Source: a virus | Taxonomy: Duplodnaviria; Heunggongvirae; Uroviricota; Caudoviricetes | Virus record (IMG/VR): IMGVR_UViG_2778261593_000004 | Coordinates: 1-12,717 of that record | DNA: 12,717 nucleotides | Strand: one strand, 5' to 3' | In this document: piece after piece, positions 4,512-9,999 of the stretch | Layout: every line of letters starts with the position of its first letter | How positions within the stretch are numbered: position 1 is the stretch's first letter | The notes under the pieces: model-generated | The model's database searches: none | What the model saw: only the letters and a program-made list of their open reading frames with translations | Told to the model about the DNA's origin: nothing | Position numbers and translations under genes: made by a program

Positions 4512-5609
4512 ATGACAATTTCATATATTCCTATTCTGAAAGCGAAGCGTTCTGAGTTATCAGCTTTATCGCAGCTATCCATTGAAAAGAAATCAAAAAT
4601 TTTGCCATTACTCGAAATTGAACCAGTGCCAATTGACCCTGATTCAGGTATTGCCTTAAAGAGTTATAACGAGACTCTTATAGAGTTCGGAAAGAAAGTC
4701 TCAAAATCTTGCTCAGATATGCAAGGTGTTTATATTGATGGATTATTAATTGAAGAGCATTTTATTTCGCCTGAAGATCATTACCCTATAATAAATGCGG
4801 TTAATCAAGTTAGAGATATGGGGATAAGAGTTATTCCTGTCAGTTCACCAACTCGCCCATCTAACTATAAAAGAGCGATTGATGAATTAATACAGAATGA
4901 AATATGCTTGAGATTAACCACGTTAGATCTGGTTAACCCACAATTAATAACGCATTACATTCATCATCTGGGAATTCCTTTATCAAATATTGATATAATT
5001 ATTGACTTAAGAGATGAGTTAACCGAGGATAAACTTAATTCCGGCGAACTATATACTTTGGCAATGGGATTGATAAACAATCTGGCGCACCTCAATGAAT
5101 ACAGAAAAGTGATTCTTTCTGGGGGTTCATTTCCTACAGATCTCAGTGATATTTCTGTTGGTCTATATTCTCAACCTCGAATCGAGTGGATTTTATGGCA
5201 GAGTTTAATGAATAGAAAAGAACTTGCCAGAAATGTGATTTATAGTGATTATGGAGTACAGCACCCCGACTTTAATAGGCTTTCGACGCGATTCCCTAGC
5301 GTATCTGCCAGCGTCAGATACTCTGGAGATAATGACTTTTGGGTATTTCGAGGAAGAGTAGCTAATCGCTTTGGTTATGAACAATATGGTAAACATAGTG
5401 AGGATATTCTTGCTCATCGAGAATATTCAGGGCCTACATTCTGTGCGGGAGATAGAGACATAGAATATTATGCAAACGAGTATCAAGCCTACAAAGCCAA
5501 TCCCTCTGGTAACTATAAATTTGGTAGCCCAGAGGTATGGCGTAGGATTGGGCAAAACCATCACATAACTAAGGTTGTTGAGCAACTCGCCACTCTTTAC
5601 GGGCTTTAA
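4512..5609 (+). CDS. Beta-protein family protein (sce7725-like), 365 aa
   Basis: ATG 4512 with AAGG 7 nt upstream; N-terminus MTISYIPILKAKRSELSALS matches the Y-x-P-I-L-K opening I associate with the Pfam Beta_protein family (memory, unverified). AT-rich; the only sizeable plus-strand gene between 326 and 10249. Confidence 0.8.
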   Translation: MTISYIPILKAKRSELSALSQLSIEKKSKILPLLEIEPVPIDPDSGIALKSYNETLIEFGKKVSKSCSDMQGVYIDGLLIEEHFISPEDHYPIINAVNQVRDMGIRVIPVSSPTRPSNYKRAIDELIQNEICLRLTTLDLVNPQLITHYIHHLGIPLSNIDIIIDLRDELTEDKLNSGELYTLAMGLINNLAHLNEYRKVILSGGSFPTDLSDISVGLYSQPRIEWILWQSLMNRKELARNVIYSDYGVQHPDFNRLSTRFPSVSASVRYSGDNDFWVFRGRVANRFGYEQYGKHSEDILAHREYSGPTFCAGDRDIEYYANEYQAYKANPSGNYKFGSPEVWRRIGQNHHITKVVEQLATLYGL

Positions 5610-6147
5610 GTTTAACTCGAACAGCTTCACGAAGCTCGCCAACATCCATACTATTGGCGAGTTTTGACCATAAGACGCGTTTAGGTTTATTTTTCAAATT
5701 CTGTAGCTCCCCTACATCACTTAATAGGGAAAGCAATTCATCTTTCCAAAGAAGCATTGTTAAGGAAAGTTTGTCCACTTGTGGATTCAACTTGCTAGTT
5801 CGAATTGTTTTTAAATGGATACCTTGCCGTGCACCTTGCGTAACTTGCTTTATCCCCCACCATGATGGAACTATGCTTAAAGCATCATAAAGATGGCAAT
5901 CAGAGACAACCAACGTTACTTTATCCATCACTGATGAGTAATGTTGCACCTGCGCTGGTAATCTGAGCAAGTTATCACTCTTGCTCTTCAACTCATAACC
6001 ATGTATAAGTCCATTGATCACTGCTATATCAGCTCTGCTAGCCCCTAGATTCATCGTAAACTCATCAATGATTAGGGTGTCAGGATCTTTATGATGATCT
6101 CTCAGAATCTTGGCATGCACAGCCTTTCTTACATCAATGTCTCTCAT
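5569..6147 (-). CDS. PD-(D/E)xK nuclease-fold protein (sce7726-like), 192 aa
   Basis: N-terminal region shows hydrophobic-D (TLIIDEF), RADIAVING, then HGYELKSKSD: a D ... E-x-K arrangement typical of restriction-endonuclease-fold nucleases. Weak SD. 3' end overlaps the convergent Beta-protein gene by 41 nt. Confidence 0.75.
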   Translation of the reverse strand: MRDIDVRKAVHAKILRDHHKDPDTLIIDEFTMNLGASRADIAVINGLIHGYELKSKSDNLLRLPAQVQHYSSVMDKVTLVVSDCHLYDALSIVPSWWGIKQVTQGARQGIHLKTIRTSKLNPQVDKLSLTMLLWKDELLSLLSDVGELQNLKNKPKRVLWSKLANSMDVGELREAVRVKLKARKEWRVAQQP

Positions 6148-7981: not shown

Positions 7982-8647
7982 TCAAACAAAACCAGCCGCT
8001 TTCCGGCGTTCATATTCCTGTTTCAGTAACTCAATTGGCGTTGGCCCCGACGGGCGTTTGGGTGCCGCCAGTTGTCGCCGGACTGGCGGAACGCTCAGGC
8101 CGTTACTAACATGCTTTGCCCATTTCGTCAGCTGCCGTTCTGCAAGCCGTTTTAATTCCCCTTCGGTCATCTGGCGCTCAATCCCCTTTGAACGCATCTC
8201 GAGGCAAATGTGATACAGCACAGGCTGAGACCACGGGTATTTATCGCTTCCGTCGTATCGCCAGGACTCGTTGCGCCAGCGTCGGTACTCCTCCATCACG
8301 TTATCCACCGTCAGACCAAATGGATTTGCCCCGCTCTCCGAAATCAGCGCCACAAACTCAGCCAAGTCCGGAGGCCATGTTTCACCTGCCCTGCAACGGT
8401 CCATGCACTGGCGGCAGACCAGCCGGATTTGCTGCTCAGTCATCGCGCCAATCTGTGCAATCCAGAGCTTCGAAGGTGCGGCCCCGTTCTTCTGGGTCCA
8501 GCGGTTCGAATAAACCTCCCCCATGAGTTCCCACAGCTTCCACGCCGTTTCCGTCGCTGATAAATCCATTTTCACGTTCCCACTGCTCACGTGCTGCCCG
8601 AATTTCCTGAACTGCCCGTGATGCGGTGCCACCTGGTGCGGCTGCAT
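7982..8647 (-). CDS. Replication protein P-like (DnaB helicase loader)
   Basis: C-terminal half ([15 protein letters not shown]...[21 protein letters not shown]...[14 protein letters not shown]) resembles lambda P as I recall it (YPWKS...LTDAELRRKAADEL...IPEPVKQLP). The 5' end is uncertain because of a 212-nt overlap with the O-like ORF. Confidence 0.7.
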
Positions 8648-9476
8648 GGCTCACCCCCTTGCTGACTGGTTTAACCTGCGCCCTGACGTGATTTACGTGA
8701 CGGGCGAATTTCTGCTCCCACTGAACCTGCGTAAATACTTTCCCCTCCGCTGCCCAGTAGTCCCGGAAGGCGGCAAGTTCAGCAGGTGTAAATTCCGGCT
8801 CCGGCAAAGCCATCCCCCACACCGCAGCCCGTCGTCGAAAATCCCGTGACGGATGCCAGCTATCGGTCATCGGAAATTTTCCGATGGGTTCGCTCAGGCC
8901 ATCCAGGAATACGGGTGGCACTGCCTGTAACGACAAAACTTCCTGCTCACTGGTCGGAGCACTCTCGCGTGCATTATGTGTGGGGTTTAGATCTTTGGGT
9001 TCCTTTGGGTTCCGTGATCCGTTTTTGGGTGTCTTTGATGGAAAATTTGGGTGTCTTTGGTTATTTTCCATGCAGCTAAGAGTTCCGTTTTTGGGGCTGT
9101 TTTGTGCTGAAACATAACCATTTTCGGTACTGTTTTTATTAACAGTACCAATTTTACCCACCTTTAAAGACTCCCGTTTTTGGGTGTATTCAGGCTCGGC
9201 AACGCTTTCTTCTACACCGATAAGTCGGTACACTACGATTTGCTTTGTTCGGCCTTTTCTCTCACCGGTATCAACAATTAACCCAATCTCCATCAGGTGT
9301 CGTAAGCTGTCCTGCACAGTCTTTTTGTTCAGCTCCGTTACTTCTGCCAGTGCAGATACAGACGGGTATGCACACAAATCGGCACCGCACATATCAGCAA
9401 GCCAGGTCAATACTGACTTACTGGATGAACTGCCGGTTTTCACCTTTTTAGCCCATCGTAGTGCATCGATACTCAT
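8436..9476 (-). CDS. Replication initiator (O-like): N-terminal wHTH domain, low-complexity linker containing origin iterons, C-terminal domain
   Basis: ATG 9476 with AGGGGT upstream (the track start at 9551 is TTG). N-terminus MSIDALRWAKKVKTG...LMEIGLIVDTGERKGRTKQIVVYRLIG is HTH-like; the origin-type iterons fall inside the K/N/P-rich linker coding region, as in lambda O. Confidence 0.7.
   Translation of the reverse strand: MSIDALRWAKKVKTGSSSSKSVLTWLADMCGADLCAYPSVSALAEVTELNKKTVQDSLRHLMEIGLIVDTGERKGRTKQIVVYRLIGVEESVAEPEYTQKRESLKVGKIGTVNKNSTENGYVSAQNSPKNGTLSCMENNQRHPNFPSKTPKNGSRNPKEPKDLNPTHNARESAPTSEQEVLSLQAVPPVFLDGLSEPIGKFPMTDSWHPSRDFRRRAAVWGMALPEPEFTPAELAAFRDYWAAEGKVFTQVQWEQKFARHVNHVRAQVKPVSKGVSHAAAPGGTASRAVQEIRAAREQWERENGFISDGNGVEAVGTHGGGLFEPLDPEERGRTFEALDCTDWRDD
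8982..9191. repeat. Candidate replication origin: iterons, AT-rich tract and 9-bp-arm palindrome, inside the O-like gene
   Basis: Iterons ccgtttttgggtgtctttg (9019-9037), gaaaatttgggtgtctttg (9041-9059), ccgtttttggggctgtttt (9085-9103), cccgtttttgggtgtattc (9173-9191), plus degenerate tttgggt copies at 8994-9010; AT-rich 9106-9165 containing ggtactgtt-tttatt-aacagtacc (9126-9149). Confidence 0.55.
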
Positions 9477-9999
9477 ACGAACCCCTGGCAGACATTTGTT
9501 TATCTGCAAAGTAATATTGGTATTGCTGACGATACGCACGCTTGAAAGCAATGGCTTTTTCTATAAGCTCGTCAGTCTCACGTTCCACAACAGCTGGATC
9601 CGCAAAAAGCAGCCCGGACTCCACCACATCGCCATATTCTTTGTTTAACCCGGCGATCATGTACGTAATGCTTTTTCCGTCAGTAATTTCACAATACAAC
9701 CTGAAATCGCTGATCCGGATAGCCTCCATAATTGCCGGAATCAGCGCCGTGAATTTTTCACGCTTATCCCTGGTGTCGATAGCTTTCCAGCGTTCGAATA
9801 TCTTCACCCTGTTAACGCCCAGCGCCCGTTGATCAACCGCGCCATCATCAAACGTGACGCGATGAACATCGATGTTCGGGCGTTCTTTCAGAGCCCAGAA
9901 TGCTTCCGTGATTAATATCGTCGCCTGCTCCTGCGTCATTCCTGGTCGGCATACCCAGGCATCCAGAGCCTCGCGAGCCTGCTCAGGAGTGAATATCAT
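9448..9999 (-). CDS. YdaT-like (CII-analogue) prophage regulator, 183 aa
   Basis: Segment ERWKAIDTRDKREKFTALIPAIMEAIRISDFRLYC resembles the YdaT core as I recall it (REKIQKLIPAILAIL...RLC); sits directly downstream of the Cro-like gene, as ydaS-ydaT in Rac. Confidence 0.6.
   Translation of the reverse strand: MIFTPEQAREALDAWVCRPGMTQEQATILITEAFWALKERPNIDVHRVTFDDGAVDQRALGVNRVKIFERWKAIDTRDKREKFTALIPAIMEAIRISDFRLYCEITDGKSITYMIAGLNKEYGDVVESGLLFADPAVVERETDELIEKAIAFKRAYRQQYQYYFADKQMSARGSYEYRCTTMG

Follow-up and report, generated by a model that had tools for sequence, protein, structure and literature searches.

The replication module and its two open frames

We analysed a stretch of 12,717 nt of the IMG/VR virus record IMGVR_UViG_2778261593_000004 (Caudoviricetes), referred to as a whole as the window, and in particular the junction between two neighbouring genes of its lambdoid replication module, an 'O-like' initiator gene and a gene for a helicase loader related to the P protein of phage lambda (the P-like protein, P below). 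Across 212 nt of this junction the two genes are open in different reading frames, and we propose that both frames are used, i.e. that this is a genuine dual-coding junction. Window coordinates are used throughout, and all the genes of the replication module are on the minus strand. The module is 100% identical to that of a prophage of E. coli RM10740 (RefSeq record, annotated by the Prokaryotic Genome Annotation Pipeline, PGAP). In that record the initiator starts at 9476, inside an open reading frame (ORF) that spans 8436-9551, and is named 'DnaT-like ssDNA-binding domain-containing protein'. The features of the junction are the following.

8436 to 9476, minus strand: initiator gene ('O-like'), 346 aa (ORF; start according to PGAP in the RM10740 record)
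8438 to 8436, minus strand: initiator stop TGA, made of the P codons Thr70-Glu71 (acTGAg)
7982 to 8647, minus strand: P-like helicase-loader gene, long form, 221 aa, the proposed true coding sequence (ORF, Pfam, PHROG 109, hhalign)
8647 to 8645, minus strand: proposed P start ATG, inside the initiator codons His-Ala (cAT Gca)
8660 to 8654, minus strand: Shine-Dalgarno (SD) sequence AAGGGGG for the long P, inside initiator codons and 6 nt upstream of the ATG
8653 to 8651, minus strand: TGA in the P frame, which closes the frame one codon above ATG 8647 (from the sequence)
8436 to 8647, minus strand: proposed dual-coding overlap, 212 nt, initiator residues 277-346 and P residues 1-70
8546 to 8647, minus strand: part A of the overlap, P residues 1-34, variable and mostly disordered by prediction, putative equivalent of lambda P domain I
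8439 to 8545, minus strand: part B of the overlap, P residues 35-70, predicted helices of the putative domain II equivalent
8522 to 8524, minus strand: internal ATG, Met42 of P, alternative start with an 89-nt overlap (180/181-aa PGAP annotations elsewhere)
8441 to 8443, minus strand: internal ATG, Met69 of P, currently annotated start, 153 aa, with an 8-nt ATGACTGA overlap (PGAP, Rac-SA53, pPE4)
8673 to 8879, minus strand: DnaT-like ssDNA-binding domain, initiator residues ~200-268 (Pfam PF17948, E 2.9e-17), directly upstream of the overlap

The original prediction, made from the letters of this DNA, had reported that both frames are open over 8436-8647. The coordinates of these 212 nt are confirmed, with the initiator stop TGA at 8438-8436. 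The initiator frame is the P frame +2, or, seen from the initiator, P is in +1, and the initiator's C-terminal end reads ...DCTDWRDD*. In part A the other frame encodes a segment of the initiator with a conserved helix (helix codons at 8571-8618), and in part B it encodes the acidic tail of the initiator, which is predicted to be disordered.

Identity of the P-like protein

Pfam Phage_lambda_P (PF06992) is matched by the P-like protein with 61.3 bits (cut-off 26); the match proper starts at P residue 59, and the model itself starts at lambda residue 38, approximately P residue 29. PHROG 109 ('P-like helicase loader') is matched with E 1.1e-62, residues 20-220 being aligned with profile positions 23-235 of 236. 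A profile of 45 P homologues was compared by hhalign with a lambda-type P profile (lambda, phi80, PAS61 and four others), and residues 30-221 were aligned with lambda 35-231 (probability 100%, E 7.9e-46). By BLASTP only residues 86-193 are aligned with lambda P (E 7e-7), the identity to lambda P is only ~18-22%, and no NCBIfam model matches the protein. Judged by these profiles, the P-like protein is truly related to lambda P, and its predicted function is that of a DnaB loader in contact with its cognate initiator. The P homologues with the same N-terminus are 212-223 aa long, and collinearity with lambda P including domain II holds only for the long ORF from 8647.

One of the alternatives raised by the original prediction was a frameshift, i.e. 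a mutation or a homopolymer error in a decaying prophage, in which one or both replication genes would be pseudogenes. Rac-like prophages are often defective, and the O-frame peptide of the overlap resembles lambda P residues 49-81 in a pairwise comparison (BLASTP E 6e-4, 36% over 33 aa), so that the likeness to the lambda P N-terminus that the original prediction had mentioned does exist at this level. It fails, however, in the profile-profile comparison, in which 24 initiator tails, combined into a profile, matched the lambda-type P profile with a probability of 0.4% (E 0.16). We rejected on this basis a homology between the initiator tail and the lambda P N-terminus, and the resemblance is probably due to chance; the homology to lambda P needs no initiator frame. 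In fact, the P frame by itself can be aligned collinearly with lambda-type P over residues 30-221, and in the alignments with homologues, which had been suggested for locating a frameshift, neither protein changes frame.

In the AlphaFold2 (AF2) model of P (mean predicted local distance difference test, pLDDT, 75.7) residues 1-27 are disordered (pLDDT 30-44) and helices are found at residues 25-46, 48-54, 60-67 and 71-86 (pLDDT 76-89); the first three (79-89) are contiguous with the remaining fold. Among the Foldseek matches in the PDB the top three were the lambda P chains of 9OA1 (E 1e-5, probability 1.0, 200-220 columns), with a template modelling (TM) score of only 0.39-0.41 and a root mean square deviation of 10-13 Å, as expected with flexibly linked domains. 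In the lambda P-DnaB structure published in 2025, according to PMC12661323, domain I (residues 1-29) is an intrinsically disordered N-terminal lasso, and domains II, III and IV comprise residues ~30-119, 120-192 and 193-233, respectively. Going by the model, the overlap would encode the equivalents of lambda P domain I and of the first half of domain II. The P-frame motif AWxLWExMGEIYSNRWxxKNGxxPSxLWIAQIG, which lies upstream of Met69 and includes Met42, is conserved down to 46% identity, and the same holds for W36, W39 and residues upstream of Met42.

Identity of the initiator

The initiator matches the Pfam DnaT domain PF17948 with 62.6 bits (cut-off 25). Its HTH_36 match (20.7 bits) is below the cut-off of 25, and homologues at 52-61% identity carry precomputed PF13730 matches. 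Since the NCBIfam model of DnaT is matched only in part (93.6 bits against a cut-off of 201, profile positions 82-157), the initiator is not DnaT itself. The AF2 layout consists of a region like a winged helix-turn-helix (wHTH) at residues 1-87 (moderate confidence), a disordered linker (88-195), the DnaT-like domain (200-268, pLDDT 77-89), a helix (287-302) and a disordered tail (306-346, pLDDT <50). The whole tail after the DnaT domain is ~78 aa long, in a protein whose homologues measure 324-366 aa, and its motifs are the helix SRAVQxIRAAxxxW and the acidic tail GGNLFEPLDxEERG...LDxxDWxDD.

We found no match to Phage_rep_O (PF04492) in the initiator at E <= 0.01, lambda O itself scoring 123 bits, and the comparison of the initiator tail revealed no similarity to lambda O. 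The PHROG families called 'replication initiation O-like' have matches confined to the N-terminal wHTH region (residues 1 to ~176), namely phrog_391 (E 4e-12), phrog_678 (E 6e-11), phrog_8540 (E 6e-8) and phrog_345 (E 1e-7). The 'O-like' label of the original prediction is therefore appropriate as far as function is concerned but not as a family name: by its domain matches the protein is a wHTH plus DnaT-domain (DopC-type) initiator, outside the lambda O family.

Kinship with YdaU of the canonical Rac prophage, in which ydaU is followed without overlap by the DnaC-like ydaV, was considered and rejected (best E 0.21), so that the label 'ydaU' given to this gene in some phage records is misleading.

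The acidic-aromatic end of the tail (8439-8470) resembles the C-termini of lambda O (LDLTNTDWIYGVDL) and of phi80 gp15 (DLDFNNTDWAYGVIR). The tail of the Vibrio phage D72 initiator ends in IDLDNGDW, and in many enterobacterial lineages the W of the motif is replaced by R then F. The likeness may be due to chance or reflect a docking motif that these proteins have in common.

Conservation of the overlap

By scanning one genome per species we obtained 33 loci with P relatives at 44-91% identity, 25 of which were compared. The set of diverged loci (n = 30) included three Vibrio-phage lineages (D72/K249, 1.247.B and D68), found by tblastn against phage records. The genera covered were Escherichia (albertii), Citrobacter, Enterobacter, Klebsiella, Pluralibacter, Phytobacter, Kluyvera, Scandinavium, Salmonella, Pectobacterium, Erwinia, Buttiauxella, Dryocola, Samsonia and Limnobaculum. 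As a set of close relatives we considered 80 IMG/VR contigs at 95-99% P identity.

Both frames were open in 30/30 diverged and 80/80 close loci, which favours the genuine long overlap among the possibilities listed in the original prediction. The close relatives all have the ATG, a P of 221 aa and an overlap of exactly 212 nt (80/80). In the diverged loci the overlap, counted from the uppermost ATG of the open P frame (top ATG) as far as the initiator stop, measured 149-227 nt, mostly 209-215; the initiator frame was the P frame +2 in all 30 of them, P was 197-230 aa long and the initiator tail ended at nearly the same P codon, give or take a few residues. In the enterobacterial members of this set the two frames are open together for ~180-260 nt, an ATG topping the open P frame, and in the Vibrio phages, whose P-like proteins are ~36-43% identical to P residues 34-132, for 191-218 nt. 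The overlap is present in phage isolates (Vibrio phages D72, K249, 1.247.B and D68) and also in records deposited as phages (vB_Apl-pPE4 and Rac-SA53). Only 22-29 nt are open in two frames in the distant loci L036-L038.

These loci also bear on the lesion considered above. Annotated long co-directional overlaps are usually errors, according to PMC2478687, but here the architecture is identical in 110 loci, from many genera and from plaque-isolated phages. The original prediction had reasoned that intact related phages with the same overlap would speak for an ordinary arrangement, and isolated phages as well as many prophages do show it with both proteins full-length. Genuine lesions, moreover, look different, their ORFs being truncated or fused. 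In Leclercia adecarboxylata (L030, 2438-2687) a frameshift cuts the P frame after 83 codons; in Erwinia sp. CGal63 (L027, 2486-2677) the initiator is broken, with stops in the tail; in Symbiopectobacterium (L035, 2176-2636) both the initiator and the P gene are broken. Among the proteins, P0084 is a deletion fusion ORF and P0107 a multiply frameshifted, fused ORF. Taken with the purifying selection on both frames reported below, this makes a lesion at the junction of the window hardly credible.

Fused ORFs could have another origin, i.e. programmed +1 ribosomal frameshifting within the overlap, which would produce an initiator-P fusion besides or instead of free P. P is indeed in the +1 frame of the initiator over 70 codons, and fusion-like ORFs are present in databases: besides P0107 and P0084, the family phrog_15931 (482 positions, 'unknown function') is matched by the initiator at 163-347 and by P at 265-482, with overlapping positions. 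However, the fusions inspected are due to a deletion (P0084) and to multiple frameshifts (P0107), and we rejected them as evidence of recoding; phrog_15931 was probably built from merged ORFs of this kind. Bacteria seldom use +1 frameshifting, which as a rule depends on a defined shift site, and the conserved SD and ATG described in the next section already account for P expression. Nor did folding reveal a stable RNA structure at the P start: the minimum free energy of the RNA around it was -36.7 kcal/mol, against a mean of -36.5 kcal/mol for shuffled sequences (z = -0.06). We regard recoding at this site as most improbable, and with the same value we rejected an RNA structure that sequesters the P start as a coupling device.

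Rac-SA53 and vB_Apl-pPE4 are ~94% identical to the window only from ~8969 to 7900, with a mosaic junction inside the initiator gene. More generally, initiators with differing N-termini (HTH_36, DUF1376, T5orf172 plus DUF1376) share their C-terminal half at 85-90% identity, and this combination of varied N-termini with a common C-terminal half fits a C-terminal half that is specific for the loader.

Two observations concern the phage records themselves. PP818812.1 carries the name of the Actinobacillus phage vB_Apl-pPE4, with A. pleuropneumoniae as host, an unexpected one for a sequence that shares 94-98% identity with the replication module of this E. coli prophage. The Vibrio-phage P-like proteins share only the N-terminal half with enterobacterial P and have no Pfam Phage_lambda_P match; they may be among the phage relatives of the VdhL helicase loaders treated in PMC11087808.

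Start codon of the P-like gene

Public records contain at least six annotated starts for this gene, giving proteins of 140, 153, 177, 180/181, 189 and 212-223 aa. The 153-aa form (start 8443) is found in RefSeq RM10740, Rac-SA53 and pPE4, the 140-aa form in the PPompW and Stx2a phage records, and the 180/181-aa form, called 'replication protein P' and starting at the equivalent of Met42, in Citrobacter, Klebsiella, Brenneria and Salmonella (PGAP). Gene callers appear to shorten P in order to avoid the long overlap.

We evaluated the candidate starts by the duplex energy of the upstream sequence with the anti-SD, for which the background values average -2.3 kcal/mol, with 5th and 1st percentiles of -6.6 and -10.0 kcal/mol, respectively. 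The original prediction had proposed the ATG at 8647 with a GGGG-type SD, and this SD, AAGGGGG at 8660-8654, reaches -11.8 kcal/mol. Over the 30 diverged loci the SD of the top ATG has a median of -9.8 kcal/mol and is below the 5th percentile of the background in 77%; in other genera GGAGG-type sites are present at the equivalent place. The top ATG itself is present in 30/30 diverged loci by selection of the loci, and all the 110 loci examined have one, in the same column of the initiator alignment in 23/30 diverged loci. The initiator codon that holds the AT of this ATG is always NAT (His, Asn, Tyr, Asp) and never NAC, the background frequency of NAT being 0.49; the bias has p ~3e-6 for 18 lineages and 5e-5 for the 14 representatives in the shared column.

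According to the databases P would start at 8443 (Met69), and the resulting protein of 153 aa would be translated by termination-reinitiation coupling over the 8-nt ATGACTGA, comparable to the ATGA of lambda. PGAP and GenBank annotate it in this way, short stop/start overlaps are described in PMC6728339 as the usual form of coupling, and the Pfam match proper begins only at residue 59. The original prediction had considered this shorter P as well, and the ATG does exist in frame with an 8-nt overlap, but the evidence disfavours it as the start. The column is ATG in 22/30 loci and Leu in the other 8/30 lineages, without an SD (median -2.5 kcal/mol). A start here falls between the predicted helices 60-67 and 71-86 and removes half of the domain II equivalent; the lambda-type P and PHROG 109 alignments reach ~40-50 residues further upstream; and 35 strongly conserved upstream residues (P ratio 0.02-0.17, see below) would have no explanation. 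The existence of a further annotation of 140 aa also suggests that callers simply avoid the long overlap. We consider a start at 8443 very unlikely.

The second internal start is Met42 (8524). In this case the overlap would be real but shorter (89 nt), the loader would have 180 aa, and the frame upstream would be untranslated or would give a minor isoform. The column is ATG in 26/30 loci and PGAP uses this start in the four genera listed above; conservation is poor over P residues 2-34, and disorder is predicted for residues 1-27. On the other hand, the column is Leu (CTG) in 4 lineages, including Vibrio phages, and the SD is weak (median -4.8 kcal/mol, 8% below the 5th percentile of the background), a stronger and positionally conserved SD with its ATG being present 41 codons upstream. 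The conserved W36 and W39 and the predicted helix from residue 25 fall upstream of Met42, the lambda-P and PHROG profiles align from residues 20-30, and the frame is open up to the top ATG in every lineage (summed log10 probability -5.7 over 18 lineages for the part of the P frame upstream of Met42, as calculated below). A start at Met42 is in our opinion unlikely, and the full 212-nt overlap, with P starting at 8647, is the probable arrangement given these comparisons of loci. An overlap of at least 89 nt, which both of these starts would produce, is highly probable on the same comparisons.

Chance openness and selection in the two frames

In the bodies of the initiators upstream of the ATG we counted 364 P-frame stops in 8,163 codons, or 0.0446 per codon, so that 70 open codons have p = 0.04 per lineage. 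The third frame contains 4.5 stops per overlap on average, and the nearest in-frame stop upstream of the ATG is 0-16 codons above it in 29/30 diverged loci.

We then randomised synonymous codons, keeping one protein fixed and resampling the codons from the usage of each locus. Given the P protein, the initiator frame was open with a median probability of ~0.04 per lineage; given the initiator protein, the P frame was open with a median probability of ~0.23. Summed over 18 mutually distant lineages, the log10 probabilities are -28.5 for the initiator frame and -10.8 for the P frame, sums that assume independent lineages, which is reasonable at saturated synonymous sites but not exact. With such values, chance is excluded as the reason for the two open frames.

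Selection was estimated with our own OLGenie-like count, in which dNN/dSN refers to the reference frame and dNN/dNS to the alternative frame. The population set consisted of 67 distinct sequences (the 80 contigs plus the window). As controls we considered mock frames in regions that encode a single protein. In the P-only region the ratio was 0.06-0.08 for P and 1.3-1.6 for the mock initiator frame; in the initiator-only region it was 0.19-0.36 for the initiator and 0.75-1.1 for the mock P frame. In the whole overlap we obtained 0.08-0.34 for P and 0.15-0.78 for the initiator.

The two parts of the overlap behave as follows. In part B (P residues 35-69) the P ratio was 0.02-0.17, with 0.02 among close relatives; the initiator ratio was 0.08 (confidence interval, CI, 0-0.20) among close relatives and 0.6-1.0 in distant pairs, for a null of ~1.3-1.6, so the selection signal of the initiator tail is weak in the distant comparisons. 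In part A (P residues 2-34) the P ratio was 0.09-0.34 in close comparisons, with upper CIs of 0.36, 0.56 and 1.70, and the initiator ratio was 0.08-0.5. Compared with the flanks, the overlap has 4- to 9-fold lower rates of changes that are silent in one frame.

On these ratios, purifying selection acts on each of the two frames within the overlap, and the frames divide the labour between them. If the AF2 models are correct, a conserved initiator helix lies over the disordered N-terminus of P, and conserved P helices lie over the disordered tail of the initiator.

A probable dual-coding junction of the lambdoid replication module

We therefore read the overlap as a genuine, evolutionarily old dual-coding junction of the lambdoid replication module, with a probability of about 0.75. 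In this reading the initiator would be translated through to the TGA at 8438-8436, and ribosomes would start P independently at ATG 8647 by means of the internal SD AAGGGGG, 212 nt before the initiator stop; the product would be the full-length P of 221 aa, collinear with lambda P. From the sequence comparisons, ATG 8647 is likely to be the start used in vivo, and P translation is best explained by internal initiation rather than by coupling at the initiator stop.

The tail of the initiator would have been added at its C-terminus by overprinting of the 5' part of P, and selection would have maintained it afterwards. This direction follows from two facts, i.e. that the P frame of part B is homologous to lambda P, which is not overlapped there, and that the PAS61 initiator lacks the tail; the alignments make overprinting the most likely origin of the tail. 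The overlap would also keep the C-terminal half of the initiator and the cognate loader together as one recombination unit, and would possibly set their ratio.

Several points weigh against the dual-coding junction as stated. The Vibrio phages have a weak SD (-3.5 to -4.4 kcal/mol) before the top ATG, and Met42, kept in most of the loci as reported above, could be the second or even the main start. P residues 2-34 are weakly constrained, with ratios of 0.63-0.78 in distant pairs and a population CI of 0.04-1.7, which includes 1. Given this weak constraint, what supports the extra 41 codons is the conservation of the ATG and of the SD, the tight upstream stop and the continued openness of the frame. 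In addition, independence of the lineages is incomplete, which makes the combined probabilities smaller than they should be by some factor, and the selection estimator is home-made and validated only by internal controls with mock frames.

Comparison with known systems

The order of the genes is the same as in the O-P pair of lambda and in gp15/gp14 of phi80, i.e. an origin-binding initiator followed by a DnaB loader, and as in lambda, where the iterons are inside gene O, iteron-like repeats are found here inside the initiator gene. In the classical view the C-terminus of lambda O is specific for P, and the C-terminal half of the initiator studied here likewise travels with the loader as one mosaic unit. 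The differences concern the junction and the initiator. In lambda, phi80 and PAS61 the two genes share only the 4 nt ATGA and stand in the other relative frame, whereas here the overlap has 212 nt and 70 codons; lambda O belongs to Phage_rep_O, whereas the initiator here has a DnaT-like domain followed by the ~78-aa tail. The PAS61 initiator also has HTH_36 and DnaT, yet it ends 19 residues after the DnaT domain, at the ATGA junction.

The same protein architectures occur in DopC/DopE, which Brezellec et al. (2017, PMC5509034) describe as a domesticated lambdoid pair, a proposed helicase matchmaker of Cellvibrionales and Oceanospirillales. According to that paper, DopC consists of HTH_36 plus a DnaT C-terminal motif and DopE of a Replication protein P domain, and the genes lie side by side; they are chromosomal and were proposed to act for oriC, whereas the pair described here is in a prophage. 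Word searches for 'overlap' in the available texts of PMC5509034 and PMC11087808 returned no occurrence.

Palleja et al. (2008, PMC2478687) state that none of the 715 co-directional overlaps >60 bp that they examined in 338 prokaryotic genomes was real. The longest genuine one reported in their survey, holD/rimI, measures 32-56 bp, is conserved among Enterobacteria and was validated by comparing both proteins with orthologues. The same logic is applied here to an overlap of 212 bp, both ends of which are conserved in orthologues, unlike those of the long overlaps rejected in the survey.

The junction also resembles the overprinted gene pairs of small viruses and phages, e.g. those of phiX174 and the MS2 lysis gene (reviewed in PMC8227390). 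As in these pairs, two proteins are read from one DNA in different frames, and in our case it is the P frame that has the older homologues. In overprinted pairs one frame is typically structured where the other is disordered; the AF2 models predict the same split in the P/initiator overlap. Unlike nested overprinted genes, this is a partial, terminal overlap of neighbouring and cooperating genes in a double-stranded DNA (dsDNA) temperate phage.

Both gene families are known and overlapping genes are familiar in phages, but a conserved co-directional overlap of 212 nt at an initiator-loader junction appears to be unreported. An earlier description was not found in a limited literature search, no part of which was aimed at this overlap, and a prior report is possible; the search for literature on ydaU/ydaV in replication found none.

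Other features of the module and of its surroundings

The remaining features of the initiator gene are the repeats.

9019 to 9192, plus strand: four iteron-like direct repeats, copies at 9019, 9085, 9118 and 9174 (repeat search)

The copies are CCGTTTTTGGG-like 19-mers, which are located in the DNA that encodes the disordered linker of the initiator, where they give rise to recurrent 'PKNG' peptides. By analogy with the lambda ori inside gene O, they are probably a replication origin, which remains putative. As far as the reading frames indicate, the replication module is intact, with genes that are full-length in comparison with their homologues and with the iteron-like repeats present.

Upstream, 29 nt (9448-9476) at the annotated start of the initiator also belong to a gene of the YdaT family (9448-9999, minus strand). 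Downstream of the module, 4512-6147 contain a convergent pair named 'sce7726 family protein' and 'beta family protein' (RefSeq, RM10740), which may be accessory or defence cargo.

Implications

The segment is present in 1,255/5,426 complete E. coli genomes, and the loader is annotated with 153 aa in the one RefSeq record inspected and in the protein cluster P0026, which occurs on at least 1,000 contigs. If the loader starts at 8647, these annotations and those of 140 or 180 aa drop ~40-80 residues of a folded domain. The 153-residue versions of the loader are probably annotation errors, and truncations of this kind would then mislead structure prediction, cloning and the assessment of the replication competence of prophages.

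The 212-bp overlap would also be a well-supported counter-example to the 60-bp limit, common to enterobacterial prophages and Vibrio phages, whose loaders are ~36% identical. The two frames can be separated in silico by single-base changes of the minus strand, each of which disables one frame and leaves the other unchanged: C8559A converts P Ser30 into a stop and conserves the initiator Ile, and G8519T introduces a stop at initiator residue 320 (the last 27 residues being lost) and conserves P Gly43.

Finally, the finding points to the C-terminal tail of the initiator and the N-terminal domain of the loader as a co-inherited unit. A more tentative and somewhat doubtful extension is that the 212 nt are a 'specificity cassette', in which one DNA encodes both sides of the initiator-loader contact and the overprinted tail became functional. 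The initiator side may consist of the C-terminal helix and the acidic LDxxDW tail, and the loader side of the N-terminal lasso and the first helices of domain II; any contact of the tail with P or DnaB is hypothetical. If this were true, recombination would never separate the cognate partners, and the passage of ribosomes along the initiator frame would modulate how the loader is initiated internally. Few co-directional overlaps maintained by selection in the genomes of dsDNA phages or bacteria would be longer, and the replication module, which is essential, would provide an example of a functional protein segment born de novo.

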